A DNA stretch of 64,000 nt from an uncultured beta proteobacterium (GCA_963718025.1 CAVQXW010000004.1:249523-313522); one strand, 5' to 3'. Counted from the first letter of the stretch, positions 34,180 through 54,290 are shown. Translations and numbers: made by a program. Notes: generated by a model not told the origin, from the sequence alone.

Positions 34180-34278
34180 GGCTTGGGTCAGTCGGCAGTA
34201 GCGAAGGACCGCAATCACAAACTCTGGTGTGCTCTACACCTTCAGCAAAGGGCAAGCTTCAAGGTGGACGGTCGTTCA

Positions 34279-36358
34279 CCTAGCCTGGATTTCCACGCGA
34301 CGGGATTCGACTAACAGTAGCGGTGCGCCAGCGTCTACGCGCGTCCCCTAATCAGGGGATCGTACTCGTTAGTCATGTGGTGCGCCTACGGCCGGCCATT
34401 CCGCTGGCCGTTTGGTCGGCAAGCTCGATCGGTGCGGTGATGCGGCCACGACTGCCAGCCTCGTCAACAGCCCCTATCCCATAGCGAAGGCATCCCCACA
34501 ACGGATGGGGGTGGCCCGGCTATTGACAACCATCGCTTGTATGTAGCAGTATGCAGGCATGGGTATAGGGGCACCAAAAGACTTAACACAGTGCCGCCGC
34601 TACTTCGCGGAACCGTCGCACCCGCGGCAGCGCATGTATGAGGCGTTGCGCGCCTATTTCCTGGAAGGGCGTGCTTCCCAGGAAGTGGCGCGCGACTTCG
34701 GCTATACCCCCGGCTCCTTTCGCGTGCTCTGTCACGCGTTCCGCCGCGATTCCGATCCGCGGTTCTTCATCTCCCCGCCGCCCGGGCCGCGCGAGCAGCC
34801 GAAGAAGGCCAAGGCACTCGATCTGGTGATCGCGTTGCGCAAGCAGAACCACTCGGTCTACGAGATCGCCACCGCGCTCAAAGCGCGCGCGCTGCCGTTG
34901 AGTCCGACCGCGGTGCGCGAGGTGCTGCGCGCGGAAGGCTTCGCCCCGTTGCCGCGGCGCCTGGATGAGGAGCGGCCCGCGCAGCCGGGACCGACGGTGG
35001 AGCCGGTGGCGGACGCGCGCGCCTTCGGGTTGACCCCGGGGACCAAGTTCACCACCCGCGTGGGCGGGCTGTTTCTGTTTCTGCCCGATCTGGTGCGCCT
35101 TGCGGTCGAGACCTTGGCGGTGAAAGCCAAGTTGCCGGGCTCGCAAATGATTCCGGCACCGCATGCCTTACGCGCGGCACTCGCGCTCAAGCTCTGGTCG
35201 ATCGAGCGCAAGAGCCACGTCATGGCGCTGGTCGCCGACCCCGGCTTGGCCTTGTTCTGTGGCTTGAACGCGATGCCGAAGAAGAGCTACCTCAGCGAAT
35301 ATTCCTCGCGCCTCGACCATGCCCGGACCACGAGCCTGTTGGCCGCCTGGCACCGTGCGGTCGCGCACGACGCACTGTTCCCCGGCGCCTCGTTCAACCT
35401 CGATTTCCACTCAGTCCCCTATTACGGGGAAGACCCGCAGGCCGAGCGCCATTACGTCTCGATGCGTAGCCGCGCGCAGCCCTCGGTGCTCACCTTCCTG
35501 GCGCAAGACGCCAGCGGGCGGGCGTTCTGCTATTCCAATGCCGATCTGCGCAAGGGCGAAGAGGCCGAAGAGATCTTCCGCTTCATCGCCTTCTGGAAGC
35601 AGCACCACGGACAGCCTCCACGCCATCTGGTGTTCGATTCGCGACTGACCACCTACGCTCACCTCGCGCGGCTCGATGGCTTGGGGATCACGTTCATCAC
35701 GCTGCGGCGGCGCTCGCCAAGCCTGCTCGCGGAAATCGCCGGCCTGGCGCCCTCGGCCTGGCGTCGGGTGAGCCTGGATGTCCCGGCGCGCAAGTACAAG
35801 ACCCCGCGCGTGTTCGAGCAGCCGGTCACCCTCGAAGGCGCGACCCTTCGGCAATTGTTCATCCTCGATCTCGGCCACGAGGAGCCGACGATCCTGCTCA
35901 GCAATGATCGGCAGAGCACCCCGGCCAAGCTCATTGCCCGCTACGCGCAGCGCATGCTGATCGAGAACGCGCTCTCCGACGCGGTGCGCTTCTTCCACAT
36001 GGATGCGCTGTCCTCGGCCGTGGGTCTCAAAGTGGATTTCGACATGGCGCTGCTGGTGATCGCCAGCGGCCTCTACCGTCTGCTCGCGCAGCGCATGCGC
36101 GGCTACGCCGAGGCCCAGGCCCGCCACATCTTCCGTGACCTGGTCGACACCCCAGCCGACGTGCGCATCTCCGAACGCGACGTGCATCTGCGCTTCCACC
36201 GCCGCGCGCACTTGCCGATCATCATCGCATCCGGGATACTCAACGCGCCGGTCAACGTGCCTTGGTGGAACAATTACACCCTGAGCATGAGCGCTTGAGG
36301 CGGACCGAAAACAGCTCCGGTGTTAGTCCAATCACCTCGCGTGGAAATCCAGGCTAGG
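34279..36358 (+). mobile_element. unclassified IS with a DDE transposase
   Basis: perfect 22-bp IR CCTAGCCTGGATTTCCACGCGA (34279-34300 / 36337-36358), extending to 38 bp with 3 mismatches; CTAG at both ends may be the target duplication. Confidence 0.85.
34559..36298 (+). CDS. putative DDE transposase with N-terminal HTH (loosely IS1380/IS1634/IS701-like)
   Basis: only long ORF inside the IRs; acidic motifs LDFH, VFDS, IENALSD in RNase H-like spacing. Confidence 0.75.
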   Translation: MGIGAPKDLTQCRRYFAEPSHPRQRMYEALRAYFLEGRASQEVARDFGYTPGSFRVLCHAFRRDSDPRFFISPPPGPREQPKKAKALDLVIALRKQNHSVYEIATALKARALPLSPTAVREVLRAEGFAPLPRRLDEERPAQPGPTVEPVADARAFGLTPGTKFTTRVGGLFLFLPDLVRLAVETLAVKAKLPGSQMIPAPHALRAALALKLWSIERKSHVMALVADPGLALFCGLNAMPKKSYLSEYSSRLDHARTTSLLAAWHRAVAHDALFPGASFNLDFHSVPYYGEDPQAERHYVSMRSRAQPSVLTFLAQDASGRAFCYSNADLRKGEEAEEIFRFIAFWKQHHGQPPRHLVFDSRLTTYAHLARLDGLGITFITLRRRSPSLLAEIAGLAPSAWRRVSLDVPARKYKTPRVFEQPVTLEGATLRQLFILDLGHEEPTILLSNDRQSTPAKLIARYAQRMLIENALSDAVRFFHMDALSSAVGLKVDFDMALLVIASGLYRLLAQRMRGYAEAQARHIFRDLVDTPADVRISERDVHLRFHRRAHLPIIIASGILNAPVNVPWWNNYTLSMSA

Positions 36359-36542
36359 GCATTGTGGCGGTTCGGCCCGATCATCAACGGCCAACGGATG
36401 ACCCGATCAGCCGAAGTGGTTTGGCGAAGCGGTTCGCGAGCTAGGCCGTCGTGATCAGGGCCGGTTCTGCCGGTAGCCGCCTCGGATGTGCGGCCTCATC
36501 CGCGAGTCGCTCGAACACAGCTAACTGGCAAGGGAGGCAGTA

Positions 36543-36860
36543 ATGATCACCGTGATGACGCAGTTCAAGTTCCCGCGCCCTGTCCCGGTCGAGAGGGCGC
36601 GCGAGGCCGCGCTTGGCTCGGCCCCGAGGTACCGGGGCGTGCCGGGGTTGATCCGGAAGTACTTCGCCCTTTCTCCCGACGGCATGAGCGGGGCCGGCAT
36701 TTATCTATGGAAGTCGCGCGAGGACGCGGATCGCATGTACAACAGCGAAGAATGGCGGGCGTTCGTGCGTGAAAGATATGGCTCCGAGCCGACGTTCACC
36801 TATCTGGAGACACTGGTCGTCGTCGACAACGTACGGAGCGAGATCGTCTCGGATTCGTAG
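36543..36860 (+). CDS. YdhR/dimeric alpha-beta barrel putative monooxygenase
   Basis: VPGLIRKYF...GAGIYLWKSREDA; GGAGG RBS. Confidence 0.8.
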   Translation: MITVMTQFKFPRPVPVERAREAALGSAPRYRGVPGLIRKYFALSPDGMSGAGIYLWKSREDADRMYNSEEWRAFVRERYGSEPTFTYLETLVVVDNVRSEIVSDS

Positions 36861-36962
36861 AAGCAGGCGAGAGGCGGTTGCGTTGTCAGGCTCGCATGTT
36901 AGCCGCGCCAGGCCGACTGCAAACCGCGAGGGTCCGGTTAGTTAAGACGCGGATGCCTGCAA

Positions 36963-37099
36963 AGGGTCGTTCAGAGTCAACTCCGTCCCGGCGCTGACCA
37001 GCGGCTCCGCGATCTACAGCGGACCTTGACGCATCGATGGCTGCAGCGGGTCACCCAGCGGCCACTCGGTCGAATCGCGTCAACGCCGGCAGCCGGCCA
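36963..37099 (+). repeat. 137-bp direct repeat, copy 1
   Basis: identical by eye to 52201-52337 (AGGGTCGTTCAGAG...GGCAGCCGGCCA). Confidence 0.92.
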
Positions 37100-37254: not shown

Positions 37255-38064
37255 CTACTTCACGCCGTATTCCTGAGCGGTTTCCCACGCCACCTGTTGC
37301 AGGTGCGCAGCGACATCGGCGGGCAGTCCGGCCGTGTAGGCGTTGCCGACGGGCGACTTGCCAAGGAGCGATGCGTACACCGTGCACGCGGCCAGGTAGG
37401 TGCCCGCGAGGCTCGGGTGCCGCTTGTCGGGCGCGTAGAGCTCGAGGTCCGGCTTCCGCGCCACGGACTTCGCGAAGGCGAGTCCCGCGGGCACGACCTG
37501 GGCACCATTGGTCTTGCCCGCGATGGTGTACTGCTCGGCAAGTTGGCCCGTCATCTCGGGCTTGTCCTTGTACGCCCAGGACATGAACAGGATCGGGCGC
37601 GCGCCGTTGGCCCGGATCGTATCCGCGTGCTTCTTCGCATACTCGTGGAACACGGACTTCAGCTTCGCGTGTATCGGGCACTGGCTGCAGTCCATGATCA
37701 TCACGGCGTCGAACTGCCGCCCGGGCGGGTTGAAGCTGATCTCGTTATCGCCGACGAACGAGTACCTGCCGATGCGGTCGGGCCCGAGATAGCTCGCGAC
37801 GTCGTGCCAGTCGATGCCCGAGCCACTGATTGTCACCGACACACCGCGGTGCGTGATCGACTTGTCGCCGCGGGTGAGCTGCGACACGTGCCCGTGCATG
37901 CTGTTGTTGTAATAGAAGAAGCTGTTGCCGACCCACAGCAGCGTCTGCGGCGGGCCGCTCGAAACCGCCGGTGTAGCGGATGGGTTTGGGACCTGGGTCG
38001 CACAGCCTGTGATGGCGAGCAGGACGAGCAGCGGCCCGAAGACGCGGTACAGGGGGAGGGTCAT
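37255..38064 (-). CDS. SGNH-type hydrolase lipoprotein (DUF4886-like)
   Basis: ITGC lipobox; WVGNSFF; DKRHPSLAGTYLAA. Confidence 0.8.
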   Translation of the reverse strand: MTLPLYRVFGPLLVLLAITGCATQVPNPSATPAVSSGPPQTLLWVGNSFFYYNNSMHGHVSQLTRGDKSITHRGVSVTISGSGIDWHDVASYLGPDRIGRYSFVGDNEISFNPPGRQFDAVMIMDCSQCPIHAKLKSVFHEYAKKHADTIRANGARPILFMSWAYKDKPEMTGQLAEQYTIAGKTNGAQVVPAGLAFAKSVARKPDLELYAPDKRHPSLAGTYLAACTVYASLLGKSPVGNAYTAGLPADVAAHLQQVAWETAQEYGVK

Positions 38065-38222
38065 GACTTGGGTCCTATCGACACCGAATGGGTGGGGGCT
38101 CCCCGCGAGGATAGCGGATGGCGGACGACCTGTGGACGACGTGCCGGTCTGCGTCACCGAAGGGGTGGCTGCGCGTTCGCGACATCGGTCACCGACAATC
38201 GTCGAACGTGCAGGTCCGCTCG

Positions 38223-38288
38223 GGGTCGTACTGCGACCTTCAGCGATCCAACCGCTCGCGTTCAGACTCGACGGTCGCAGACCGGCCA
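38223..38288 (+). repeat. 66-bp palindromic repeat unit, copy A
   Basis: GGGTCG...CGGCCA; about 57/66 identical to 41464-41529. Confidence 0.75.
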
Positions 38289-38442
38289 CAACCAGACCGT
38301 CGTCACCACCCGCCAATCGGCATCGGAAGGACTGCCAGGAGAAGGGCGCCGCGGCCCCCGGCGTTCGCGACGTCGGCAGCCCGCGGCAAACCCGCTTCGA
38401 GGTTGCGAAGTCGCTTCATCCGCGCTTCGTTAAGTCTTGCGG

Positions 38443-40323
38443 TCAGTGGCCCTGATCGTGCGGTACGACACAGGTTGCGACAGCCGTCGTGGCGTTGCCT
38501 GCGCGATCGGTCGCGTTTGCCGACAGCGTGTAGGTGCGTCCCGGTCCATCGCCAAGGCGTGTCGCCCGAACGGAAATGATCCGCGGAGCGAGACCGGTGC
38601 CGGCCGTCACGGTGTCGGGCTGTCCCGGTGCCGCAGCTTCGCTGCTTGCAACGCTGGTATTGAAGGACGACAGGCCGGACAATCCGTCCTGTGCCGCAAC
38701 GGTCGCGACATTCACGAGCTTGTTGTTCGGGGGCCAGATCTCGCATCCGGCCGCGGGCAAACCCGAGATCGAAGGCGGTGTCTTGTCGAGTTGCACGACC
38801 AGGGTCTTGGCGGTCTCGGCATTGCCTGCGTTGTCGGTCGCATAGTAGGTGACCGTCGTCTGGCCCTCGGCGTTGATGGTCAGCGAAGCACTGCCACCGT
38901 TGACGCTCCCGACGCCGACCTGGCCGCCGGCCGTGGAAAACGTAATCTGCTTGACGCCCGAGCCGTTCGCGTTGTCGGTCGCGGTCAGCGTCACGGTCAC
39001 GTCGGCATTGTTCCAGCCGTTGGCGTTGGCGGGCGGGTTCGCCGCCGCAACCGTGGTCGGGGCCGACAGGTCGGCCCCGACCGTCGCCTGTGCGACTCGC
39101 TGCAGCTGCACGGCGACGTAAGGCGCGATCCCCAGTTCGGCCGCTGCCATTTCACCAGCCCCGAGGCTCAACGCATTGCGGCCGGTGAGCGTCTGGAACA
39201 AAACCAGTGCACTGAGGTAGGAGCCGTGCTTGCTCGCGTGCAGATAGTCGTCCCACCACAGGTTGGTCTTGTCCCCCGGCACCGCGACGGTATACGTTCC
39301 CTCGGCGTTATAAAAGCCGTCGCGCTTCGCGACATCTTCGTCCAACGCGCGCTGAAACGCGTCGCCGACCGGGATCACGCCGGCGAGACTGGGATTCGCG
39401 ATGACGTTGGCGCGTCCAGGGATCGGCTGCAACTTCGCGGCAAAGCTTGCCCGCAGGTCTGCCGTCATGCCTGCAAGTCCCGTGTCGGTGTAGTAGAGCG
39501 TGTCGGGGTAGCCGTCTGGACGGGTCGGAACGCCGTTAACAATCAAGGTGTCGACGATCGGCCGGCCGTCCGGGACGGTCGGATAGTTCGCATCGGCGAT
39601 GGTGGCAAGGTGCGGAAAGACCATGTCCGGCCGCGCCCAAGTCTGCGTCAGGTACACCTTCGTGTCGGCGCTGGCGTTCGGGTTCGCCGGGATGACGCGT
39701 GAGGTCGTGTTGCTGCACGCCAACGGCGTACCGAGTGCAAGCCTGCAGGCCGCATCGCTGCCGTATATCGCCTGATACATGCTCCTTTCCGTGAAGGTCT
39801 CGGCAGCGCCGAGGTGGACGTACTTCTCGATCTTGTCGACGTACGCGCTGAACTGGGGAAGGTTCGCGTTGGCGCCGCGCCCTGACGGCAGCGCAGCGTC
39901 GCTCTGCTCCTGCAGCACCACGATGTCCCACTTGCGCTTGGCGATGTTGCCGCGCAGGTCCCAGTCGGCGTTGGCCGTATTGAGGAAGTGTCCACGCAGC
40001 GTGGCGGCGTTGCGCGCCGACATCGACACGTTGAACTCGAAGCCGGCCTGGTCGGCGAGTCGCTTGAAGATGCCCGGGACGCCGCCCCACGGATGCGGCT
40101 CCCACGCGCGCGTGCCGGTCGTGTCGGTGAAATTCGGATCTGGCAGATCCGGCCGCGGCCGGGTCAGGTCGTCCACGTTCGCGGTGTTGTAGCTCATCAC
40201 CGGATCGAGACGCCCGAACGTGTAGCTGTTGCCGACGAACAGGATCGAACTCGGAGCGGCGATGACGGCGGAACTGGCGGTAGACGCGGCGAAGGCGAGG
40301 GCGAGCGGTACGAAACGCTTCAT
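38443..40323 (-). CDS. secreted SGNH-type protein with C-terminal beta-rich Ig-like domains
   Basis: signal peptide; FVGNSYTF, VLQEQS, DYLHASKHGSYL; TDNAGN-type repeats and WPPNNKLV in the C-terminus. Confidence 0.8.
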   Translation of the reverse strand: MKRFVPLALAFAASTASSAVIAAPSSILFVGNSYTFGRLDPVMSYNTANVDDLTRPRPDLPDPNFTDTTGTRAWEPHPWGGVPGIFKRLADQAGFEFNVSMSARNAATLRGHFLNTANADWDLRGNIAKRKWDIVVLQEQSDAALPSGRGANANLPQFSAYVDKIEKYVHLGAAETFTERSMYQAIYGSDAACRLALGTPLACSNTTSRVIPANPNASADTKVYLTQTWARPDMVFPHLATIADANYPTVPDGRPIVDTLIVNGVPTRPDGYPDTLYYTDTGLAGMTADLRASFAAKLQPIPGRANVIANPSLAGVIPVGDAFQRALDEDVAKRDGFYNAEGTYTVAVPGDKTNLWWDDYLHASKHGSYLSALVLFQTLTGRNALSLGAGEMAAAELGIAPYVAVQLQRVAQATVGADLSAPTTVAAANPPANANGWNNADVTVTLTATDNANGSGVKQITFSTAGGQVGVGSVNGGSASLTINAEGQTTVTYYATDNAGNAETAKTLVVQLDKTPPSISGLPAAGCEIWPPNNKLVNVATVAAQDGLSGLSSFNTSVASSEAAAPGQPDTVTAGTGLAPRIISVRATRLGDGPGRTYTLSANATDRAGNATTAVATCVVPHDQGH

Positions 40324-40712
40324 GGGAGCTCCGAGGCGGGGGTTGGCCGGCGGACGATAGGCACAAGAAACCCAGAGGTCAAGTATAAGTACATCGGTCA
40401 CCAGGCCTGAAAATCGCCAGCGGCGGGTATGGGTTGGGCACGGCCGCCCGGCCTCCGGCGATGGCGGGTCTACGGTTTACACCGGCCCTTCACGCGTCCG
40501 TGGCCGCTGTATGTCATCCAGCGGCCGCTCGGGTCCGTACGGTGGCTGGCCGGCGACCGGCCAACAGCTGTCGGTCGGGGTCGCCGCTGGATCGTCCGGC
40601 AAGCGGCCGTAGGCGCGCGGCGATCCCCCGACCCCGCGCGGCCAGGGAGAGCGAGCCGCCGCGCGGCGTATCGACCACGATCGGCAGCGCCGATTGCCGG
40701 TCCTTCCTGCGT

Positions 40713-41213
40713 TTACTTCTTGCGCTCAACGACCCATTCGCAGTGGGAGTCGCCATGGAGCATATTCTTGGTCAGTCTGAATGTGAAATTTGGGTTCAGA
40801 CTTTCGACAGCTCCATCCCCCCATCGTTGGTGCCCTACGCCGCAGGTGTCAAAGTCAACACCTTGCTCCTTCCATCTCTTGTGCCATGGGCATTGAGTAG
40901 TCTTTCCGACGCATCTGTCTTTGGTGGCTTCAACAACCTCGAACACAAACTCGGGCCCCATCGACGCTTGAGCAAGAAGATGTGTAATCCCTTCGATGTC
41001 CTTGGCGGTCTCGGTGGCCAGTCCAAGGTTGGCAGCAAATTCCTTTGCTCCCTTTCCGGCTCCGTACCACAGCGGACCATTGAACTCCTCAAATTTCTTC
41101 TGTCCGACAGCCTCCTTCAAGGCTTTGGAGACTGCAATGTACGCGCCGGTCAATCCTTTCGTTGCAATTTCCCACCTCGTCTTCTCGGGAATCGCTTCCA
41201 GCGGGTCAGCCAT
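40713..41213 (-). CDS. L-2-amino-thiazoline-4-carboxylate hydrolase-like / DUF6125-like protein
   Basis: QCPWHKRW...TCGVGH...GDSHCEW motif pattern; AGGAGGAGG RBS; AT-richer than its surroundings. Confidence 0.65.
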   Translation of the reverse strand: MADPLEAIPEKTRWEIATKGLTGAYIAVSKALKEAVGQKKFEEFNGPLWYGAGKGAKEFAANLGLATETAKDIEGITHLLAQASMGPEFVFEVVEATKDRCVGKTTQCPWHKRWKEQGVDFDTCGVGHQRWGDGAVESLNPNFTFRLTKNMLHGDSHCEWVVERKK

Positions 41214-41463
41214 CGATCGCCTCCTCCTGTGGACCGTGCTTCGAATTGCCCCCTGCAGCCGAACTGATTCTCGCTCCGTGCCCCAACCATTGCAAGGCGC
41301 GCGTGGTCCGACTCGGCCTCGCGGCCGTAGTCGGCGACGGCGGCGCCATGAAGGTAGGATGTCGGTCCTCGAACATCGGCGTCGTGCGACTTGTTGCCGG
41401 GGCCTCAATAGCGGCTTCCATCGCACTGTGTGTTCGCGCCGGTGTCCGGCCAATGTCGGGATC

Positions 41464-41529
41464 GGGTCGTTCTGCGACCGTCGCCGATCAAACCGCTCGC
41501 GTTCAGACTTGAAGGTCTCTGACCGGCCA
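41464..41529 (+). repeat. 66-bp palindromic repeat unit, copy B
   Basis: same length and ends as 38223-38288. Confidence 0.75.
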
Positions 41530-41699
41530 ACTGCTGTCAGTTGCGCTGGGCACCGAGATCGCTCCAGACCGGACATTGGAACGTCACCGCACCGCATGAA
41601 TCCTTGGGCTGAGATTCCCCCCGCACGGATCAGCCCAGGTTATTTCCCGGTTGCACTCACGCGTGGGCTATCGAACGGATTCGACGGCGGTCCCGCCGA

Positions 41700-42203
41700 T
41701 CAACACTGGTGCGTGAGCCCGATCACCCTGGCAAGGTAGTCCGCCAGCGCCGCCAAGTCGGCGACCCGAAAGCGCGGCAACGAGGTCTCGATAGGCTCAT
41801 CGGACACGAGCGATACGATGTTCTTGTTCCCTGGCCACCGCATGGTGCGACCGCTGGAGGGCACGCAGACCTCGACGGTCGGAATCGCCGCCGTTTTGAA
41901 CCCTTGGGCGATGACCACGTCGACCAGCGCGAGCCGCGCGAGTAGGGAGTCGAGCGATGGTTCGGGATCGGCGCCGAACTCCTGCATCAACACCAGACGC
42001 TTGTCGCCGACGAGCATGACCTCGCGACAGCCCGCTTCGCGCCGCGCGTACGACCCCTTGCCTGGTTGATCCAGGTCGAACCCGTCCGGGGCGCGCTTGA
42101 TGGTCGACACCGACCACCCGTTAAAATGGAAGGCGTGGATCAGATCCTCGACGAACGTCCCCTGGCCCAATGCGGAGGCCCCCAAGAGTCCAATGACCTT
42201 CAT
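41700..42203 (-). CDS. mobB: molybdopterin-guanine dinucleotide biosynthesis protein B-like
   Basis: VSTIKRAPDGFDLDQPGKGSY..REAG, DVVIAQGFK; P-loop degenerate. Confidence 0.8.
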   Translation of the reverse strand: MKVIGLLGASALGQGTFVEDLIHAFHFNGWSVSTIKRAPDGFDLDQPGKGSYARREAGCREVMLVGDKRLVLMQEFGADPEPSLDSLLARLALVDVVIAQGFKTAAIPTVEVCVPSSGRTMRWPGNKNIVSLVSDEPIETSLPRFRVADLAALADYLARVIGLTHQC

Positions 42204-42275
42204 TGGGCTGGGCAACGGCCAGGGAAAGCCTGAGTCATCGGCGGTTGTCGCGAGAGGGCTGTGCGCCGTCGAAGG

Positions 42276-43400: not shown

Positions 43401-43497
43401 CGAAGGCAAGCCTATTCGTTCGTTTGGATTACACGCCAGCGGATACGCGGTGCCCAACCCACGCCGAAGGCACAGAAATAGTTCCGCTCTGCTGCGC

Positions 43498-44645: not shown

Positions 44646-45016
44646 GCGGATTTCCTCTTGCGGGTGGAGGGCAGTGCTTGCGCCAAGGGCTGCGGGGCTC
44701 CCACGGGGACGCAGGCCGCGTCGCAAACAGCGCTGGAGCCGCAGCAGTTTTCGGTGAGGTAGCCGACCAGACCATTCATCGCATCGAGATCGGCGCGGTA
44801 CCAGATGAACCTGCTCTGCGGATGCGCGGCAATGAGCCCCGCGTGCGCCAGTTCCTTCAGATGAAAGGAGAGCGTCGCCGGTGGCAGGCCGAGGCGCTCG
44901 GCAATGGCCCCAGCCGGCAAGCCCTCTGGGGCGTGCTCGACCAACAGGCGAAACACCGCGAGGCGGTTTTCCTGTGCCAGCGCGCTAAGGGCTACCAATG
45001 CATCCTTGGTTTTCAT
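44642..45016 (-). CDS. arsR: ArsR family repressor with C-terminal Cys pair
   Basis: ALAQENRLAVFRLL, LSFHLKEL, LTENCCG. Confidence 0.93.
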   Translation of the reverse strand: MKTKDALVALSALAQENRLAVFRLLVEHAPEGLPAGAIAERLGLPPATLSFHLKELAHAGLIAAHPQSRFIWYRADLDAMNGLVGYLTENCCGSSAVCDAACVPVGAPQPLAQALPSTRKRKSA

Positions 45017-45023
45017 GTTTCTA

Positions 45024-45052
45024 ATAATATAAAAGTATACGAGCGATGTCAA
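45024..45052 (-). promoter_or_regulatory. sigma70 promoter of the ars operon
   Basis: minus strand TTGACA (45052-45047), 17 bp, TATTAT (45029-45024), 7 nt before the arsR ATG. Confidence 0.8.
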
Positions 45053-45182
45053 TCTCACGCAGAGCGGGCGAGATCTCGCTCGGCCGGAACGTCCAGAATC
45101 CCGGCCACTTGGCGAAAAATGGGCGCCCCGCAAGGCGCCCAATGTGCATCAACGCGGAGGAGGAAGCCGCGTTTCCCCCCGT

Positions 45183-47663
45183 TTACACCCGGTCGTATCG
45201 CCGACTCTTGAAGCTGATCGTGTCGCGATGTTCGGCGCCGCTGCCGGCGCGCCGGATGCTGGCCCAAGTCCCTTTGTAATACGGGATGATGTTGCGGTCG
45301 GTCCAATTGGTCGTGACATCACCCTGCACGCCGTTGTCGTAGCCGAACTGCATGAAGGTCTGGCCGGGCTTCTGGTCCGGTTCGGGGTAGGCCATTGCGA
45401 ACGTCGCGCCCCAGTCGTTGTAGACCTCGACGAAGTCTCCGGCCTCGATCTTGAGCGACGCCATGTCGTCAGGATTCATCTCGATGATGGACATGGGATA
45501 GCGGCCCCGCACGTAGGCGTTGTACTTGTTGTGGTAGCCGGTCTGCCAGACCTCGTTGATGCGCCCGTTGTTGATCCAGAACCGATGCTTGGCCTTGAGG
45601 TCGGCGACGGGTTTGGGCAATCCCGGCCACGGTGAAGGCAGGAACTTAGCCTTGCCATCGGCCGTGTCGAACTTGCCATCCATGTACAGCATCTCGGTGC
45701 CGATCAGCTTGCCGTCCTTGTACTCCTTGATGGGCAGCTGCACGCCGTTGTTGCCCATCACGCGCAGGCGCTCGTAGGTGGCGAGGTTCCCGGTGCCGCC
45801 ACCCTGGCTGTCGATGGGGGGCGATCCCGGCTGGCCGGCCCGGCGGAACCCATCGTTGAACACGTCTTCCTCGGCCTTCCACTCGAAGCCGTCGAAGCGC
45901 GCAGCCATAGTGGCATTGCCCTCTGCCCGGTACATCGACTTCAGCGAGTTTGCAATCGCAGCTGCGATCAGGCAATCCGGCCGCGCGGTGCCAGGTGGGT
46001 CCATGAATTTCTGGGACAGCCGGCAGCGGCGTTCGCCGTTCATCGACGTGAGATTCATCTCTCCCGGATGCGCCGCGGGCAGGAGCATGCTCGACGCCTC
46101 GGAGAACATTACCGGATAGAGATCGATGGTCGTCACGAACAGACCACCCTTGTTGCAGGCGTCGACAATCACATCGACCATCTGAGCGGGCGTCGCCCCA
46201 CGCGCCTTATTCATCGCGTCCTTCACGATGTTGGAGCGACGGTGGATCTCGGTCCGGTACGCCTGAGCGTTCAGCGTTGTCTGGAAATTGTTGCAGCCCC
46301 AGGCGGTCAGCATCTTGCCTTTGCCCTTCATCAACTCCTCGTCGATGAAGATCTTGCTGTTACCGGGATAGGGCGGACGCGTATAGCCCTCCTGGTGGCC
46401 GCCCATGCGCACGCAGCCGGTGCCGCGACGGCCGACGTTCCGGGTCGCAAGCACGAGATCGACCAGCGCCGACTGGATCAGATAGTTGTCATTGCCCCAG
46501 ATGATGCCTTTCTCGTACGCATGCATGGTCCTGGGCAGCACGCCCGGAGCCTTTGGCTTGTAGGCCCATTCCGCCGCCTGTCGGAGCTTGGCAACGGAGA
46601 CGCCCGTGATGCGGCTGCACTCGTCGAGCGAGAGCTTGTTCGCGGCGACCACAGCGTCGAATCCGGTCGTGTTCTTGGCGATGAAATCGCGGTCGATCCA
46701 CCCTTGGTCGACCACGTAGGTGAAGAGGCCATTGAACAGTGCGATGTCGGTGCCGGGCTGGATGTCGAGATGCAGCACGCGGTCCTTGGCGACCTGTTCG
46801 GCAATGGCAATGGTGTTCGTGCGACGCGGATCGACAAAGATGACGCGAGTGGGGGGTAGCGGTTCGTTGGGGAACCACTGTTTGCGCTTGGCCTCAGTGC
46901 CGCCTTGCAGGTTCGGTATCCAGTGCGCGAGGAAGTAGTTGGTTTGCGTTTCGTACTGGTTCGCGCCGATACCCATGATGCAGTCCGCGACTTCGGCGTC
47001 CTCGTAGGAATTGTTGAGCTCACCAACCCCCATGTCGCGCGTCGCATGGCATTCAGAGTTATAGGCCGGCCGATTGTGAATGCGCACCATCGGCGTTTGT
47101 AGGGCCGTGAACATCAGCTTGCCCGTGCCCCAGGTATTCTCGAACCCGCCGCCGGCACCGCCGTGGTCGAAGCAGTTGAACACGAGCCCCGAAGGGCCGT
47201 CCTTATCGAGTATCTTCTTCGCGACGCCGCAATAGATCGCGAGCGCGTCGTCCCAGGTCGTGTCCACCCACTGTGCGCCGGTAAAAAGCCGCGGTGACTT
47301 GAGCCGCGCCTTGGCGTCGCCACTCGGGTTGTACATGTAGGTCGCCATCTGCCCGCCGCGTACCGATGACAGGCCCTGATTCACCGAGCACGCCTTGTCG
47401 GGAAGAATCATGACGTTATAGCGGCGTCCGTCCGAGTCCTCGATCAGGTTGTGCATCGCCGGCGTCATGATCTGCGTGAGCGGTGCCACTTGCGTCCGGA
47501 AGTCGACGCCAAGTGCATTCTGGTCCGGTGACCGTCCGCCCTCGCGGTTCTCGTCCCACTTGTAAACGTGGTATCCGCAACCCACGATGCAGAAGTGACA
47601 GGTCAGGTTGGTCTTCTGCGCGTTGACGGGCGGCAGCGGAAGGCGATCCTTGAATTGCGCCAT
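45183..47663 (-). CDS. aioA: arsenite oxidase large (molybdopterin) subunit
   Basis: CHFCIVGC...GLSSVRG [3Fe-4S] motif, [33 protein letters not shown]. Confidence 0.97.
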
Positions 47664-47674
47664 GGTGTCGCCCC

Positions 47675-48199
47675 CTATAGGATGTTGGATTGACGGCCGT
47701 AGATCAGGCCGGCCACCGCGACGGCGGTCACACTGCCGGTCGAGGCGTCATATTCGAGGACGATCCGTGCCAGGTCTTCCGTGGCCTGCCCGCACACCAT
47801 TTGCCCGCCTTTTTCGGCGTCGAAAGTGCTGTAGTGGCAAGGGCACTTGAAACAACGTGACTTCGCGTCATAGGCGACCGGGCAGCCCATGTGAGAGCAA
47901 AGGGTGCTGTAGGCGACGATGTCGCGGCCAGGCCCAACACCGCCTTCGACCGGCTTCCCCATCCGAATCACCGTGCACGGCGACGAGTCGTCGGGGTAGC
48001 TGAAGGCGGCCGCCTGGCCCATGGCCATCTGCCCCGCCGCGCCCAATGGTTTGCGCGGGTAGGGGAGGACCGTGTTGCCGGCGTCGGCCGTGGTGGCGGC
48101 GAGAGCCGCTTCGGGAATCGCCCCGGTTACTAATCCGGCCCCTGCCGCAAGGCCACCCGACTTCTTAAAAAATTCTCTCCGCGAGAGCTTGTCGCTCAT
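47675..48199 (-). CDS. aioB: arsenite oxidase small Rieske subunit with Tat signal
   Basis: SRREFFK Tat motif; CSHMGC and CPCHYS Rieske ligands. Confidence 0.96.
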
Positions 48200-48257
48200 C
48201 GTTTTTCCTCCAAGGATTATTGTCGTGGACCAACAGCTGGGATTACCCTGTTGGCAA

Positions 48258-48273
48258 TGCACGTTTCATTCCC
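48258..48273 (-). promoter_or_regulatory. possible sigma54 -24/-12 promoter of aioBA
   Basis: minus strand GGGAATGAAACGTGCA gives GG-N10-GC; partial consensus match; AioR is a sigma54 activator. Confidence 0.4.
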
Positions 48274-48333
48274 GTGACAAGGGGCCGAGTACGCGCGCTA
48301 AATCAGTGGGTTAGCGGTATAGAAGGCTGCGGT

Positions 48334-48393
48334 GTTACCAGCTGGTAACCAAACTCGCGGGCGGCCGCGTTCAGGTGGTCACCGCCAGGTAAC
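48334..48393. promoter_or_regulatory. paired palindromes, candidate AioR enhancer sites
   Basis: perfect GTTACCAGCTGGTAAC (48334-48349) and GTCACCGCCAGGTAAC (48378-48393). Confidence 0.55.
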
Positions 48394-48435
48394 GGCGCGG
48401 AAATGCGGTCACTACTTGACTAGAATCTGCAAACT

Positions 48436-49356
48436 ATGGCGTCGGCGAATCAGGAAGGGCAGGTGAAGAACAACGACCACCCTCGGAAGGTGTCCAAGCG
48501 AGAGTTTTGCGCGGCGGCTATCGCGATAGCGGCGGCCCTGCCTCGCGTCGCGCTGGGCGCTTCGGAAGCGCCAATCCGCATCGGCACAACCTCAGTGATT
48601 CTCGACAACCAGGTTGGCTTTTTGCACGCCTGGCGCGACTACCTGCAACCCCGGCTGGGCCGGCCGGTCACGTTTCTGCAGCGCGGCAGCTATCGCGAAA
48701 TCACCTCCATGCTCATGGGCGACGAATTGGACTTCGCCTGGGTGTGCGGGTACCCCTATGTGCGCAATCGCGCCGCATGGGAACTCGTTGCATTGCCGAA
48801 CTATGGCGGCAAGCCGCTCTACCGGTCATACCTGATCGTGCCGGCCACCGACAAGTCTGCCCAAGGCTTCGACGCGCTGGCCGGCAAGGTATTCGCCTAT
48901 TCCGATCCGGACTCGAACTCGGGGTTCCTTGTCCCGCAGTTCGAAATGTTACGAACCGGTATCTATCCACCCACACACTTCCGCAAGACGTTCTTCACCT
49001 ATGCGCATCACAAGGTTGTGGCCGCCGTCGCCGATGGCGTCGCGCAGGGCGGAGCGGTCGACGGATATGTTTGGGAGACGCTTGCGCTGCGCGCGCCGGA
49101 ACTCACTCGACGCACGCGGGTCGCGCACGTTTCTGATGAGTATGGGTTTCCGCCGATGGTTGCGCGCCGCTCGCTCGACCGCGCGACGTACACGGTATTT
49201 CGCGACACGCTGCTTGCGATGCCCAACGACGCGCGCGGTCGCGAACTTCTGCAGCAACTCAATCTCGACGGCTTCCTGCCGCCTGACGATGCTCAGTTTG
49301 CCGGAATCGCCCACGTGCTTGAATTCGTCTCGTCTCGCGAACGGCTACCGACCTAA
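48436..49356 (+). CDS. aioX: periplasmic arsenite-binding protein (PhnD-like fold)
   Basis: Tat-like KREF leader; FAWVCGYPY with conserved Cys; SDPDSNSG; start 48436 or 48463. Confidence 0.9.
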   Translation: MASANQEGQVKNNDHPRKVSKREFCAAAIAIAAALPRVALGASEAPIRIGTTSVILDNQVGFLHAWRDYLQPRLGRPVTFLQRGSYREITSMLMGDELDFAWVCGYPYVRNRAAWELVALPNYGGKPLYRSYLIVPATDKSAQGFDALAGKVFAYSDPDSNSGFLVPQFEMLRTGIYPPTHFRKTFFTYAHHKVVAAVADGVAQGGAVDGYVWETLALRAPELTRRTRVAHVSDEYGFPPMVARRSLDRATYTVFRDTLLAMPNDARGRELLQQLNLDGFLPPDDAQFAGIAHVLEFVSSRERLPT

Positions 49357-49359
49357 GTC

Positions 49360-50805
49360 ATGGCTACGCTTGACGACCTTAGTTACCGGGTCAAGGTCCC
49401 GCTGGCATTGTTGGCGGTCATCGTCGTCGTGTCGGCGATTCTGGCTGCGCTTCTCGGAGCACAGATCTATGCGGACGCACGGCGTGACCTGCTCGGGAAT
49501 GCCGAGAGTCTCGGGCGGACGCTGGCGCGAGCACTGACGCCAGCGATGCTCCGCGACGATGTCTGGCAAGCCTACGAAACGATTGTCGCTCCACTCGCAG
49601 GCGAGACTGGCGAGGGAAGCGGGCGCCGTTCGATCACCGTCCTCGATGCGGACGGCAAGATCTATGCATCGTCCGACCCGGCGCGATTTCCGATGCTCGC
49701 GCCCGCTACGCAAACGTTGGGGCCGGCGGCCGAGAAGCTGCTATCTCCCGGAGATGACAAGAGTCCCACCGTCGTCGAAGACCCTTCGACCAAGGTCATT
49801 CTGGTCGGCGTGCCTATAGTCGCGGATGATGGCGCGCGGCTCGGCAGCGTTGTGCTCAGCTTTTCGCAGGATGTCTTCGTCCCGCGCTTCTTCACGACGG
49901 TGGAGCGAGTCGTCTTGTCTACCTTGGTCGCTCTCGTCGTGCTGGTGCCGATTGGCTGGTGGTTCGGACGGCGGATGGCCGCGCCGCTCGTGGGCCTCGC
50001 CGCCGCGATGAAACGCGTTGGTGAAGCCCCGCCGACGGAGTTGGCGCGAGGGCTTTATCGTAGCGGTGACGAGATCGGGCAGCTGGGCAACCGCTTTGAG
50101 CAAATGGTCATTGAGCTGGAGGGGAAGCAGCGGCTTGAACGCGAGATCGTTGCGGCGGACCGGCTGGCTGCCATCGGCCGCTTGACCGCCGGAATCGCCC
50201 ATGAGATCAACAATCCGCTGGCCGGCATGATTACCGCAATCGATACTGCTCGAAAGCACGGCGAGCCTGATCCCATTTCCGCAAGCACGCTGTCTCTGGT
50301 CGAACGTGGGCTGCAGCAAATTCGCCATTCGGTCAGCGCACTGTTGGTCGAGGCGCGGTTCGAGGCCCGCGCGCTGACACCGCAGGACATTGACGATGTT
50401 CGCACGCTGTTGGAACCGGAAGCCGCGACGCGCGAGCAGACGTTGCAGTGGGAAAGCCACCTGGACCGCGCGCTGCCGCTGCCTTCGACACCCATTCGCC
50501 AAATCCTGATCAACCTGATCCTGAACGCGATCCAGGCGGCCGGTCGGGGAGGGACCGTTTCGTGCCGCATTCAGGCGGATGCCTCACAGATGTCCTTCGA
50601 AGTTCGCAATGACGGACGCTCCATTCCCGACGAATTGATGGAGCACCTGTTCGAGCCGTTCTCCACTGGATCGGAAGGCGGCAGCGGGCTCGGGTTGTGG
50701 GTGACCTACCAGATCGTTGAGCAGCTGCGCGGCACGATTCGCGTGCGCAGTGGGCTGCCGGAGACGGAATTCGCGGTCGCCCTACCGCTTGGCGCTGCCG
50801 CATGA
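49360..50805 (+). CDS. aioS: sensor histidine kinase
   Basis: two TM helices, HAMP, AHEINNPL H-box, NAIQA, GLGL; between aioX and aioR. Confidence 0.92.
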   Translation: MATLDDLSYRVKVPLALLAVIVVVSAILAALLGAQIYADARRDLLGNAESLGRTLARALTPAMLRDDVWQAYETIVAPLAGETGEGSGRRSITVLDADGKIYASSDPARFPMLAPATQTLGPAAEKLLSPGDDKSPTVVEDPSTKVILVGVPIVADDGARLGSVVLSFSQDVFVPRFFTTVERVVLSTLVALVVLVPIGWWFGRRMAAPLVGLAAAMKRVGEAPPTELARGLYRSGDEIGQLGNRFEQMVIELEGKQRLEREIVAADRLAAIGRLTAGIAHEINNPLAGMITAIDTARKHGEPDPISASTLSLVERGLQQIRHSVSALLVEARFEARALTPQDIDDVRTLLEPEAATREQTLQWESHLDRALPLPSTPIRQILINLILNAIQAAGRGGTVSCRIQADASQMSFEVRNDGRSIPDELMEHLFEPFSTGSEGGSGLGLWVTYQIVEQLRGTIRVRSGLPETEFAVALPLGAAA

Positions 50806-52145
50806 CGGCGAAACTTTGCCTCATCGAGGACGACCCGATCATGGGGGAATCGCTACACCAGCGATTGTCACTGGAGGGATTCGACTGCGACTGGCACCGT
50901 ACCGGGACGGCAGCGCTCGCCGCGCTTGAACGTGAGGCGTACGCTGCCGTGGTTTCGGATGTGCGCCTACCGGATCTCTCGGGCGAGGCATTGTTTCGCG
51001 CCGCGCTCGACCGCGACGAACATGCACCGCCGTTTGTGTTTGTCACCGCGTACGGATCGATTGATCGCGCGGTTGAGCTGATCAAACTTGGCGCCGCCGA
51101 CTATGTAACGAAGCCGTTCGACGTTGAGCAGCTTATTCTGAAGCTGAAGGTGCTGGCAGGTGTGCCGGACAAGATTTCGACCTCAGCTGGGCGTGCTGAA
51201 CTCGGGACATCCGCGGCAGCGCGCCGGGTCGAAGAGCTATTGCCGCGAATCTCCCAGCTTGCCGATACGGTTCTCATCACCGGCGAATCAGGCGTAGGCA
51301 AGGAGCGCATTGCGCAGATTCTGCATCGATTGGGCGATGCCGATGGTGGCGCACCGTTCATCGCCGTGAACTGTGCCGCCGTCAGCGAATCTTTGCTTGA
51401 GGCGGAGTTGTTTGGCCATGAACGCGGGGCGTTCACCGGTGCGATTCGGACAAGGCGCGGCGTGTTCGAGCAGGCCGAGGGCGGAACTTTGTTCCTCGAC
51501 GAGATAGGCGAGATGACGCCAGGTATGCAGGCGAAGCTATTGCGGGCGATCCAGGAGCGGGAGATCGTCCGCGTGGGTGGAGAAAGACGTATTCCAGTGC
51601 GCCTTCGGCTGATTTGCGCAACCAATCGCAATCTGCAGGAACTCGTCGACGACGGACGCTTCCGGCGCGACCTGTACTATCGCATAAACGTTATTCACCT
51701 GCGATTGCCGGCGCTGCGCGAACGTCGCGACGATATTCTTTGGTTTGCAAGAACGTTCCTCGCTGAGCGATGCCGCACCCACGCGGTTGCAAGGCGGCTA
51801 AGTGTGGCCTCCGAGTCGGCACTGCTCGCCCACGACTGGCCCGGTAATATTCGCGAATTGCGTCATGCAATCGAGCGCGCGTGCATCCTGTCGCAGCGTC
51901 TTGTGATTGAACCGGACGACCTGTTCGAGTCACTCGCTGGAGAGTCCTCTGTCGTTCCGGTTGAGGGCGATTCGACACTAAGCGACTATCTGCAGCGGGG
52001 TGAGCGATACTTCATCCTCGAAACCTTAGAACGGCATGGTTGGCAAATTGGGGCGTCCGCGCGGGTGCTAGGTATCAGTCGGAAGAATCTTTGGGAGCGC
52101 ATGCGCCGACTAGCTATCGCCGCGAGCGACACGCGAGACAACTAG
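50802..52145 (+). CDS. aioR: sigma54-dependent response regulator
   Basis: receiver domain, GESGVGKE, GAFTGA, WPGNIREL, C-terminal HTH. Confidence 0.93.
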   Translation: MTAKLCLIEDDPIMGESLHQRLSLEGFDCDWHRTGTAALAALEREAYAAVVSDVRLPDLSGEALFRAALDRDEHAPPFVFVTAYGSIDRAVELIKLGAADYVTKPFDVEQLILKLKVLAGVPDKISTSAGRAELGTSAAARRVEELLPRISQLADTVLITGESGVGKERIAQILHRLGDADGGAPFIAVNCAAVSESLLEAELFGHERGAFTGAIRTRRGVFEQAEGGTLFLDEIGEMTPGMQAKLLRAIQEREIVRVGGERRIPVRLRLICATNRNLQELVDDGRFRRDLYYRINVIHLRLPALRERRDDILWFARTFLAERCRTHAVARRLSVASESALLAHDWPGNIRELRHAIERACILSQRLVIEPDDLFESLAGESSVVPVEGDSTLSDYLQRGERYFILETLERHGWQIGASARVLGISRKNLWERMRRLAIAASDTRDN

Positions 52146-52200
52146 AGTCCGCTTTCGGCTAAACCGAACGCCGGCTCGCGGCAGGGCCGAACGTCCGGAG

Positions 52201-52337
52201 AGGGTCGTTCAGAGTCAACTCCGTCCCGGCGCTGACCAGCGGCTCCGCGATCTACAGCGGACCTTGACGCATCGATGGCTGCAGCGGGTCACCCAGCGGC
52301 CACTCGGTCGAATCGCGTCAACGCCGGCAGCCGGCCA
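52201..52337 (+). repeat. 137-bp direct repeat, copy 2
   Basis: identical by eye to 36963-37099. Confidence 0.92.
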
Positions 52338-52574
52338 TTACCGGCCATTCTCGAAACTCATTCGTTCTGACGAAGAGCGGTCACTCGTTGACCCCCTGCA
52401 ATCCCGGGGACCATACTCGTGTGCCGATCGCTCCCTTCGCGGATAAGATCCGGCTACATCAATTTCATCGCCGAGAGCGATGATGCCGCGCACGGCGACC
52501 GGCAAGATCCTGTCCCGCCGCCGGCGTGACCGGTTCACTCGTTGACTGATCTGCACTCGACTCCGGAGGAAAAC

Positions 52575-53636
52575 ATGCAACTTCACATGCACTGCGTAGT
52601 CTTTGCGCTCGGCTTCGTTGTCCTGCTGGCGCCGGCCAGCGCCCAGATGCCGGTCAACGACGAACCGCTGACGGACAGGTGGGCACCTAGCGAGTGGGGC
52701 CCCGACGACAAGATGGGCTCTGTCAACCGCACTACGCCTGAGCTGGTGCTGAAGGCGGTCGGACTGGTCAAGCAGGGCAAGACCGCGACGCTCGGCAAGG
52801 TGTATGCATCCGACGCGCCGGCGTTTGGCACGCGCAGCTGGCGCCTGTTCATTCCAGGCCGGCCCACCGGCGGGCCGTTCGGGCCGCAACAACTCGTCTA
52901 CAACGACGAGGTCGTCACCACCGAGCTCGGCCAGATCGGCACGCAGTTCGACGGGCCGGGGCACATCGGTGTGATCACCTCGAAGGGCCGCTACTACTAC
53001 AACGGCCGCTTCGACCACGATCCGGGCATCGGCTCGGCCGGCATGGGACCGCTCGGCGTCGAGTACGTCGCGCAGAAGGGCTTCGTCTGCCGCGGCGTGC
53101 TGCTGGATGCGGTCGCGCAGCGCGGTGCTGTGCTGCCGGTTCCCAAGGAGAACAGCTCGAGCGACCCCGGCATCGTGACCGCGAAGGACATCGAAGCGAT
53201 GGTCAAGCGGCAGGGCATCGCACCGATCGGCACCGGCGACTGCGTGTTCCTGTACACGGGCCACGGGGATCTTTGGCATCCGCGCGACTGGGACAAGTTC
53301 GACGCGGCCGAAAAGGCGAAACGCGTCGCGCAGTTCAACGCCGGTGAGCCAGGATTCGGCATTTCCGCGTGCGAATACCTCGCCGAACGCAAGATCATCC
53401 TGACCGGCGCCGACAACTGGGGCACCGAGGCGGTCGGCAAGGGCTTTGGCGGCGAGAATCCGCAGCCCTTCGAGTGCCACGTCAAGCTGCAGACCAAGCG
53501 CGGGATCTGGAACATTGAGAACCTCGACCTGTCGCAGCTAGTGGCCGACAAGGCCTACGAGTTCCTGTTCGTCTGGTCGCCACTGAAGATGAAGGGTGCC
53601 ACGGGCTCGCCGGGTAATCCGGTGGCGCTTTACTGA
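52575..53636 (+). CDS. secreted cyclase-family (kynurenine formamidase-like) protein
   Basis: signal peptide; GTQFDGPGH, GVLLD, CHVKL, IWNIENL, GATGSPGNP. Confidence 0.88.
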   Translation: MQLHMHCVVFALGFVVLLAPASAQMPVNDEPLTDRWAPSEWGPDDKMGSVNRTTPELVLKAVGLVKQGKTATLGKVYASDAPAFGTRSWRLFIPGRPTGGPFGPQQLVYNDEVVTTELGQIGTQFDGPGHIGVITSKGRYYYNGRFDHDPGIGSAGMGPLGVEYVAQKGFVCRGVLLDAVAQRGAVLPVPKENSSSDPGIVTAKDIEAMVKRQGIAPIGTGDCVFLYTGHGDLWHPRDWDKFDAAEKAKRVAQFNAGEPGFGISACEYLAERKIILTGADNWGTEAVGKGFGGENPQPFECHVKLQTKRGIWNIENLDLSQLVADKAYEFLFVWSPLKMKGATGSPGNPVALY

Positions 53637-53767
53637 AGACTTAGGCGTCGTCGCTTTTCGGCCAGAAGCGGTCGGTTTCAGCCACTGCCAGTGTCCCCTC
53701 GCAGCCGGGGCGCCCCTATGCTAGTCCAGTGTAACGGTCGAGGACAAAACGTCGCTACCGGATGCGC

Positions 53768-53950
53768 CTATTTGCGCGGCGCGGTGTCAATTACTATGCC
53801 CACTCCGGTACCAATCAGGGCACCCGACACGGGATGGCCGGTAGCAACACCAACGCCGGTACCGATCAGTCCTCCCGCGATGGTCGCGCACCCAGACAGC
53901 GCTACGACGGGAACGACTACGACAAGCAATCTCAATCTTCGAACCATCAT
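53768..53950 (-). CDS. small glycine-zipper-like lipoprotein
   Basis: LSGC lipobox; GGLIGTGVG...GALIGTGVG repeats. Confidence 0.65.
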   Translation of the reverse strand: MMVRRLRLLVVVVPVVALSGCATIAGGLIGTGVGVATGHPVSGALIGTGVGIVIDTAPRK

Positions 53951-54290
53951 CTGCCCTTTCCGCTATCGTGCTGCTGTACCCAAGCAATTGCCGCTCATGT
54001 GAGAGTTCTGACGGGGCGACGGCAGTTTCGCCCGGCGCCAAGCAAACACAAACCAACGGCCGTAGCCGGTGCTCGTTGTGGATTCTTGCATGTCTGGGCC
54101 CCAGGAATGTAACCTGCAACGTGTGCTGCCGTTGAGAGCGTTGGCCGCTCGCGGCGTCCGGCATCGGTGTGGGTAGCAGCTTACGGCCAGCTGCAGCCGT
54201 AACGCGCTGCGCCGCATAGCGGTCTTTGATCGGGGCTTGTCGGCCACGGGTGATCAATCAAACATTCGGCCTGGGTGCCATAGGTAGGCC

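Follow-up and report, generated by a model that had tools for sequence, protein, structure and literature searches.

Between 36964 and 52337 of the DNA examined here, five discrete non-coding repeats are interspersed with DUF4886-family genes, an ATC-hydrolase-like gene and an arsenic locus, and insertion sequence (IS) transposase genes lie at the two edges of this unit-bearing region. The DNA, referred to below as the window, is a stretch of 64,000 nt (C4:249523-313522) from the 4.88-Mb, 67% GC, 7-contig assembly of an uncultured beta proteobacterium (G000). The repeats belong to two families, D1 and D6, which alternate along the window and all lie on the + strand. The original prediction, made from the window sequence, had seen short palindromes with an arm-core-arm layout that resembled tyrosine-recombinase sites and had proposed a gene-capture array distinct from classical attC cassettes. 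We lean towards a different reading, in which the units are a new, lineage-specific and modular family of intergenic repeats similar to repetitive extragenic palindromes (REPs), REP doublets forming hairpins (REPINs), bacterial interspersed mosaic elements (BIMEs) or Neisseria intergenic mosaic elements (NIMEs), acting as recombination joints of the flexible genome and spreading with it.

Structure and distribution of the repeat units

Units were delimited by repeat finding, BLAST and iterated nhmmer on the whole assembly, followed by covariance models for D6 (R1) and D1 (R2). Together the two models recover exactly the five units of the window, with E = 1e-18 to 5e-38:

36964-37099, + strand: D1 copy 1, about 136 nt, GGGTCG...CAGCCGGCCA; 157 bits, E = 5e-38
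38223-38288, + strand: D6 copy 1, 66-nt imperfect inverted doublet, GGGTCG...GACCGGCCA; 84.7 bits
40431-40563, + strand: D1 copy 2, diverged, with a GGGTTG start; 118 bits, E = 4e-28
40564-40610, + strand: M3 module, an optional right extension of about 47 nt found on some D1 and some D6 units (six-copy alignment)
41464-41529, + strand: D6 copy 2; 89.7 bits
52202-52337, + strand: D1 copy 3; 156 bits, identical (100%) to copy 1 over 137 nt

D1 units are about 136 nt and D6 units 66 nt long, and both families start with GGGTCG (GGGTTG in the second D1 of the window) and end with CCGGCCA. The layout of D6 is GGGTCGAACTGCGACCGTCGA, about 24 nt and then TCGACGGTCGCAGACCGGCC, an imperfect inverted doublet with imperfect terminal inverted repeats of about 21 nt. 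D1 has no clear terminal inverted repeats and is composite, its D6-like first part of about 63 nt ending CAGACCGGCC and its second part again ending CAGCCGGCCA. These pieces are combined in mosaics, namely D6+M3, D1+M3, M0+D1 (M0 being an optional left module) and half D6 units. The bare hexamers are common in the window (GGGTCG 59 times, CGGCCA 147 times), so significance attaches only to the long units.

The palindromes of the original prediction are real sequences. Direct reading confirmed both GACGGTC-gcagac-CGGCCA-caacca-GACCGTC (38270-38301) and AGGTC..GGGTCG..GACCT (38212-38239), and the 66-nt pair at 38223 and 41464 is 86% identical, as had been stated. The list of about ten short elements nevertheless resolves into fragments of five longer ones. 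The sites at 36960 and 37090 are the two ends of D1 copy 1, those at 41464 and 41524 both lie within D6 copy 2, those at 52200 and 52330 both belong to D1 copy 3, and 40555-40590 falls in D1 copy 2 plus its M3 extension and is not a separate unit. The two palindromes quoted in full straddle the two ends of D6 copy 1, each extending about 11-13 nt into the flank. A site listed near 53655 could not be upheld, matching neither R1 nor R2 at E <= 1.

The ends of the units coincide with ends of homology in metagenomes, where the evidence consists of short assembled contigs that break at repeats. Such contigs part from the window exactly at 36964 and 37099/37100, the two ends of D1 copy 1; loose contig ends lie at 38288, the right end of D6 copy 1; and at D6 copy 2 many contigs begin at 41463/41464 and stop at 41528-41531.

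The symmetry of D6 is that of a DNA-level inverted doublet, not of a conserved RNA. With 35 distinct D6 copies, drawn from many species, 78% of cells are paired in the long-range inverted repeat, compared with 21-45% when it is slid. In explicit pair counting on these copies, covariation was no better than in shuffles, and RNAalifold returned weak structures only, which together ruled out a conserved RNA structure. No unit matched Rfam at the gathering threshold, the window matches being two tRNAs only. A coding remnant was also considered, given the protein-like reverse-strand translations (RLLTG..GDPERQLLAG; SERERLDRRRSQFDP), and was ruled out by substitutions lacking 3-base periodicity (117/142/142 and 28/21/28), by stops, by indels that disrupt the frame and by the lack of an open reading frame (ORF) leading in. 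Around 17 copies there was no flanking direct duplication, and the flanks showed a weak extra inverted repeat instead.

Three contigs of this genome carry units, 11 of D1 and about 10 of D6, all 21 of them intergenic. Every one of the 21 lies in a 6-kb segment at or below the 30th GC percentile (median 10th), and 13 lie no more than 10 kb from another unit (1.7 expected). Identity among three of the D1 copies is 97-100%. Across 61 sampled genomes of the genus (one per species, mostly fragmented metagenome-assembled genomes, MAGs), D6 was found in at least 18, at 1-11 copies each, while D1 was found in this genome and in G013, G008 and G011 giving no more than marginal matches (E about 3e-4 to 8e-4). 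Identity of D6 between species is about 85-90%, equal to or above that of neighbouring coding DNA (70-85%). Scanning 185,579 species genomes for the pattern gave 58 stretches, and most of the true matches were MAGs labelled "uncultured beta proteobacterium", many from one Danish survey; searches of viral contigs and plasmids gave no unit matches. Two full-length D6 units (79 and 62 bits) were also seen on a 1.06-Mb contig (CAVPLP010000002.1) of a MAG labelled uncultured Actinomycetes, which could reflect a mislabelled or mis-binned contig or transfer between phyla.

In general, units that occur together share one orientation. All five do so in the window (5/5), as do those of three arrays in G076 (5/5, 4/4 and 2/2, at 1-3 kb spacing) and those on one contig of G001 (4/4). 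The genes between units in G076 are unrelated to one another (SCO1, CLC channel, aldehyde dehydrogenase with DUF779, M10 peptidase, Hcp, TctC, BBE oxidase and ABC_sub_bind). Two clusters are of mixed orientation (G000:C2:636-640k and G013:C7), and the orientation of the units relative to the adjoining gene differs between the window and G076.

Module ends at unit edges and the genes between units

Four modules that are about 92-99% identical to DNA of other species or metagenomes end at unit edges, showing that the placement of units at gene-content breakpoints is non-random. A module of 1004 nt carrying a GST gene is 96.4% identical between this genome (C2:636903-637906) and G013, begins in the middle of a D6 unit and stops at the end of a D1 unit, and its flanks are unalignable. 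The segment C4:318318-319163, a D6 unit with a gene of 214 aa, is 92% identical to locus L118, which has the unit; locus L094 carries the same gene at 89% without the unit, and its homology to this segment starts at the GGGTCG edge. Loci L112 and L141 share 686 nt at 99.3% from the unit edge, and an IS5-like element lies at the L141 joint.

The remaining module lies in the window itself (40555-41463, M3 plus the ATC-hydrolase-like gene) and recurs in metagenome runs X7 and X10, bounded exactly at unit edges. In X7 it is about 97% identical; its left side there carries the tail of a D6-type unit in place of the window's D1, and the sequence to its right is unrelated from exactly 41464 onwards. 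An excised circle was considered for the X7 joint ("goes back 966") and was rejected, the joint being better explained by the D6-type unit to the left of the module there. The breakpoints vary from case to case: some coincide with the GGGTCG terminus, others with the CCGGCCA terminus or with the middle of the unit. None of the comparisons yielded a clean empty site, and in all of them the flanks differed beyond the unit.

The genes of the window were called with a filter on third-position GC content rather than with a gene finder, and their names come from Pfam. The gene list of the arsenic locus omits a stretch at about 44190-44640, between arsC and arsR. The features around and between the units are:

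27368-28447, - strand: tyrosine integrase, directly beside a tRNA-Arg (ACG) at 27224-27300 on the opposite strand
34559-36298, + strand: IS transposase of 579 aa (DDE match, weak), bounding the unit-bearing region on the left
37255-38064, - strand: DUF4886-family gene, between D1 copy 1 and D6 copy 1
38443-40325, - strand: gene with DUF4886 and Ig-like domains, between D6 copy 1 and D1 copy 2
40713-41213, - strand: ATC-hydrolase-like gene
41700-52145: arsenic locus (mobB, acr3, arsC, arsR, aioA, aioB, aioX, aioS, aioR)
52542-53636, + strand: putative cyclase gene, right of D1 copy 3
54291-54408, - strand: integrase N-terminal SAM-like relic (TEQPYFDGIKRFVHFHGKRHP), about 34 codons, weak, facing away from the units
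54488-55567, + strand: rve-type IS transposase, bounding the unit-bearing region on the right

The description of unrelated single genes between units holds for part of this array. The ATC-hydrolase-like gene does stand alone, and an exact-protein look-up of it returned no record, but two of the neighbours are both DUF4886 genes, the interval 41529-52202 between D6 copy 2 and D1 copy 3 carries about 10 ars/aio genes, and the segment 52337-54260 holds the cyclase gene plus a small ORF. Homologs of the DUF4886 gene at 37255-38064 occur at 82-86% in G009, G095 and G047 with no flanking units, and in G009 and G095 the DUF4886 pair is adjacent without a unit between or beside the two genes. The ars part is common within the genus as a multi-gene locus at only 70-83% identity, and the search is therefore uninformative on the borders of the arsenic locus.

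The surroundings of the units look like a mosaic island. GC content is 0.60-0.65 over 36-57 kb and 0.67-0.70 outside, and an IS21 element is also present among the surroundings in the window. A tRNA-Arg with an adjacent tyrosine integrase is typical of places where islands insert, which suggests that the window is a genomic island on this side; no repeat of the tRNA-Arg 3' end (att) that would delimit it was found within the window.

Comparison with integrons, REPs and insertion sequences

The genome contains a complete integron (G000:C2:816172-835168), which allowed a direct comparison with attC sites. Its IntI (C2:816172-817113; TIGR02249, 468 bits) is the sole full IntI of the genome and is accompanied by attC sites of canonical form (GCCTAAC...GTTAGGC), at least 12 in number and all on one strand, with some cassettes duplicated at 99% identity. 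A cluster of five attC sites lacking an integron integrase (CALIN) lies at C3:631573-643319, and two sites lie at C2:435801-436585. Seven of the genome's own attC sites were used to build an attC model (R3), which recovers 16 sites, all on C2 and C3 in the integron, the CALIN at C3:631-643k and the C2:435k pair, five of them outside the training set. It finds none on C4, in the region of the units or in the G076 and G013 arrays. The units, starting GGGTCG and ending CCGGCCA, have no RYYYAAC/GTTRRRY boxes. Identity with attC or CALIN is therefore ruled out, and the original view that the units are distinct from classical attC sites stands. The units do resemble attC/CALIN in being imperfect palindromes of 60-140 nt between mostly unrelated genes, in co-oriented arrays in flexible DNA and with modules bounded at the repeats. 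They differ in lacking the boxes, an R3 match and an adjacent IntI, in their varied breakpoints and in having intervals of up to 10 genes.

No full IntI adjoins the window array, which is neighboured only by the N-terminal-like relic of about 34 codons at 54291-54408; this scores 18.6 bits to PF13495, under the Pfam cut-off, and a TIGR02249 search reports nothing there. Relics resembling integron integrases were noted at two places, window 54181-54408 (- strand) and G000:C4:615345-615630, with no attC near either. The C4:615k locus comprises two fragments of the C-terminal part, with TIGR02249 scores of 41.6 and 52.8 bits, and lies 5-13 kb from two D1 units.

To look for an enzyme associated with the units, ORFs around them were clustered (about 45 loci, more than 25 genomes). 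Recombinases of the tyrosine or serine type do not recur in this set, and none adjoins the window array. What does recur is ABC_sub_bind genes, in 9 genomes, an IS5-like transposase, in 7, and IS110-family transposases, in 3. The ABC_sub_bind (PF04392) genes are no more than about 60-150 nt away from a D1 or D6 unit, with which they always share the strand (L104, L111, L114, L115, L126, L130, L140, L144 and L078), an association that may reflect merely an expanded family in flexible DNA or a preferred cargo. No pair of units encloses a transposase, and the inverted pairs hold cargo (GST; Ig-like protein). An autonomous element between inverted D1 copies (C2:637766-639626) was rejected on finding an Ig-like secreted protein and no transposase in its interior, and the gene between a D6 half and a D1 is the GST gene. 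The IS5-like element was discarded as a parent because its ends differ from those of the units. No conserved gene reads away from M0, where no consistent ORF was found.

The genome carries Y1 transposase genes. One of them, a REP-associated tyrosine transposase (RAYT)-like gene at G000:C3:597230-597559, is flanked by tandem REPs of the GGGGCCAGGCTCGA type, of which the genome has 67 exact copies and the window none; this different REP ruled out the RAYT-REP system of the genome as the source of the D units. Other repeats share the intergenic space. An IS200-like tnpA with one in-frame stop (G000:C4:35807-36163) is followed by a 200-nt segment that recurs at 98.5-99.5% at C4:317901-318100, C4:629354-629556, C3:1959428-1959623 and C2:1124667-1124862. 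Two copies of this segment lie 200-300 nt from D units, so several kinds of repeat accumulate at shared intergenic sites. A separate dispersed repeat of about 138 nt and about 80% identity (G000:C3:1762648-1762785 and about 33 other places) is the most abundant one seen in the genome.

An IS1111/IS110-type IS of about 1.67 kb encodes a 378-aa DEDD transposase, has CTTC at both junctions and carries subterminal inverted repeats (TATGAGGGCG..GCCCCCTTGA / TCAAGGGGGC..GCCCTTCATA), its ends differing from those of the units. Its copies in G000 all lie outside the window:

C3:1696799-1698466: IS1111-type IS
C3:1947460-1949127: IS1111-type IS
C4:508135-509469: IS1111-type IS
C2:1247884-1248586: IS1111-type IS

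The element abuts the GGGTCG end of two units, in conserved sequence immediately to the left of D units, and beside a third unit the target is seen without interruption (GAACGGCGGCTTC^AATCGA..., within M0). IS110-family genes also adjoin units in loci L097 and L107. The IS1111-type IS is absent from the other 60 of the 61 genus genomes and, being limited to G000, is a guest; its candidacy as the driver of the units was rejected on the same ground. REPs are known targets of IS110/IS1111 elements, whose homing to REPs as well as to attC sites has been well documented (PMC1525189, PMC11187229, PMC11208160, PMC12288879).

Among known repeats, the units come close to the REP/REPIN/BIME elements of gamma-proteobacteria (PMC3116915, PMC3337134) in being short, non-coding, intergenic and palindromic. 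The inverted doublet of D6 and its capacity to form a hairpin recall REPINs, the combination of modules in mosaics recalls BIMEs, and REPs and BIMEs are likewise insertion targets of IS110/IS1111 elements (PMC1525189). Unlike these elements, the units number about 21 per genome and are clustered, are confined to low-GC flexible regions and mostly form co-oriented arrays; D1 is longer (about 136 nt), and no RAYT flanked by D units was found in this genome. The dRS3 repeats of NIMEs are targets of an IS110/Piv-type recombinase. NIMEs, in which RS elements are flanked by dRS3 repeats, share with the units a mosaic, intergenic make-up of 50-150 nt with short inverted repeats, and they have been tied to recombination and genome flexibility (PMC1797815, PMC3898611). 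There is no sequence relationship between the two, the lineage here consists of environmental betaproteobacterial MAGs, and NIMEs form dense tandem mosaics whereas the units stand singly between genes 1-10 kb apart.

The pdif (XerC/XerD) modules of Acinetobacter plasmids are bounded by 28-bp sites (11-6-11) of alternating orientation. They resemble the present modules in being small gene modules bounded by short non-attC sites, whereas the units are 66-136 nt long, have arms of 5-7 nt that are 18 nt apart, are chromosomal and co-oriented, and contain no dif-like sequence. Their inner palindromes have 3- or 5-nt spacers and do not show the Xer/dif layout of two arms of about 11 bp around a 6-8-bp centre.

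Nature of the units and significance

The inverted doublet, the mosaic modules, the intergenic position, the conservation of sequence over structure and the targeting by IS1111 place the units with REP/REPIN/BIME- or NIME-like repeats. As recombination joints, the units would act at the DNA level, with recombination at or between them (homologous, or mediated by hairpins or microhomology) shuffling and importing the gene blocks that lie between. They would spread along with the flexible DNA, possibly also by non-autonomous transposition through an enzyme acting in trans, and would not be the sites of a dedicated integron-like integrase. Several points weigh against this reading. Typical REP families have far higher copy numbers than the roughly 21 per genome seen here, and the one RAYT-like gene of the genome is flanked by the GGGGCCAGGCTCGA REP and not by D units. 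Neither a target-site duplication nor a parent IS was found. D6 is as conserved as adjacent coding DNA or more so, which needs constraint or recent horizontal spread. The strict co-orientation of most arrays, together with homology that ends within a few bases of the unit edges, would also be expected of a directional site-specific system.

The possibility that D1 and D6 are the sites of such a system, a non-integron gene-cassette system whose recombinase is encoded elsewhere (in trans or once per genome) and which inserts and excises directionally to give co-oriented arrays in flexible regions, draws on the same arrays, with unrelated genes at 1-3 kb spacing in the window, G076 and G001, and on the four modules common to different genomes. 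The confinement of units to low-GC flexible DNA, the termini that D1 and D6 have in common and a cross-species conservation without covariation, as for a protein-binding site, also fit. We nevertheless regard it as unlikely, given that no recombinase recurs in the loci compared, that the breakpoints define no single crossover point, that unit-to-gene orientation is inconstant and two clusters are mixed, that one interval holds 10 genes, that the DUF4886 pair is unit-free elsewhere and that the X7 joint is accounted for by a D6-type unit and not by a circular junction. In its specific form, that the GGGTCG...CCGGCCA units are sites of a previously unknown cassette system, unrelated to integrons, by which an in-trans recombinase of a soil/sediment betaproteobacterial genus moves modules of one to few genes directionally, the proposal seems to us doubtful, and if anything a shade more so. 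The arm-core-arm tyrosine-recombinase site of the original prediction is not supported, its arms (5-7 nt, 18 nt apart) being sub-features of 66- and about 136-nt elements with neither a recurring recombinase nor one crossover point. The broader idea of a gene-capture array is partly supported, with the module ends at unit edges and the co-oriented arrays in its favour and the 10-gene interval, the unit-free DUF4886 pair, the varied breakpoints and the missing recombinase against it. Neither random placement relative to gene-content boundaries nor a match to a known REP or MITE (miniature inverted-repeat transposable element) family was found.

Plain non-autonomous transposons of the MITE/REPIN kind, moved in trans by a transposase such as an HUH/Y1 enzyme acting on single-stranded hairpins, would explain the sharp ends and imperfect terminal inverted repeats of D6 and the near-identity of three D1 copies, which implies recent copying. 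Such elements would prefer intergenic flexible DNA, where nearly every intergenic region is a synteny break and the overlap would be incidental, and strand-biased insertion could produce the co-orientation. Y1 transposase genes are available in the genome, a unit lies inside the DUF4886 pair here and in neither G009 nor G095, and L094 lacks the unit that L118 and G000 have beside the same gene. The lack of a target-site duplication and of a clean empty site, flanks that differ in all comparisons, the low copy number and the failure to find an autonomous parent with matching ends (the IS5-like ends differ, the RAYT has another REP and the IS1111-like IS occurs in G000 only) make this reading a minority one, with a modest chance of being right. 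Far less probable is a function in cis, as RNA or as regulatory sequence (terminators, hairpins stabilising mRNA, operators or small RNAs), with the units moving together with the genes on which they act. All five window units do lie 50-220 nt past a gene's stop codon and their sequence has hairpin potential, but there is no covariation for a structure, no T-run after the hairpin and no Rfam match, orientation to the upstream gene is inconstant and the adjoining genes are functionally unrelated.

If the units are REP/NIME-like joints only, they would be useful for marking the flexible genes of an abundant, uncultured betaproteobacterial genus of soil and sediment, and would provide another case of IS110/IS1111 homing to repeats. 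The units depart from classical REPs in four respects, namely their low copy number, their restriction to acquired DNA, their co-oriented arrays and their coincidence with module ends, and these departures leave room for a second, non-integron route of gene-array assembly. Were such a route true, it would bear on how accessory genes are gathered and moved, here including an arsenite-oxidation/resistance locus.

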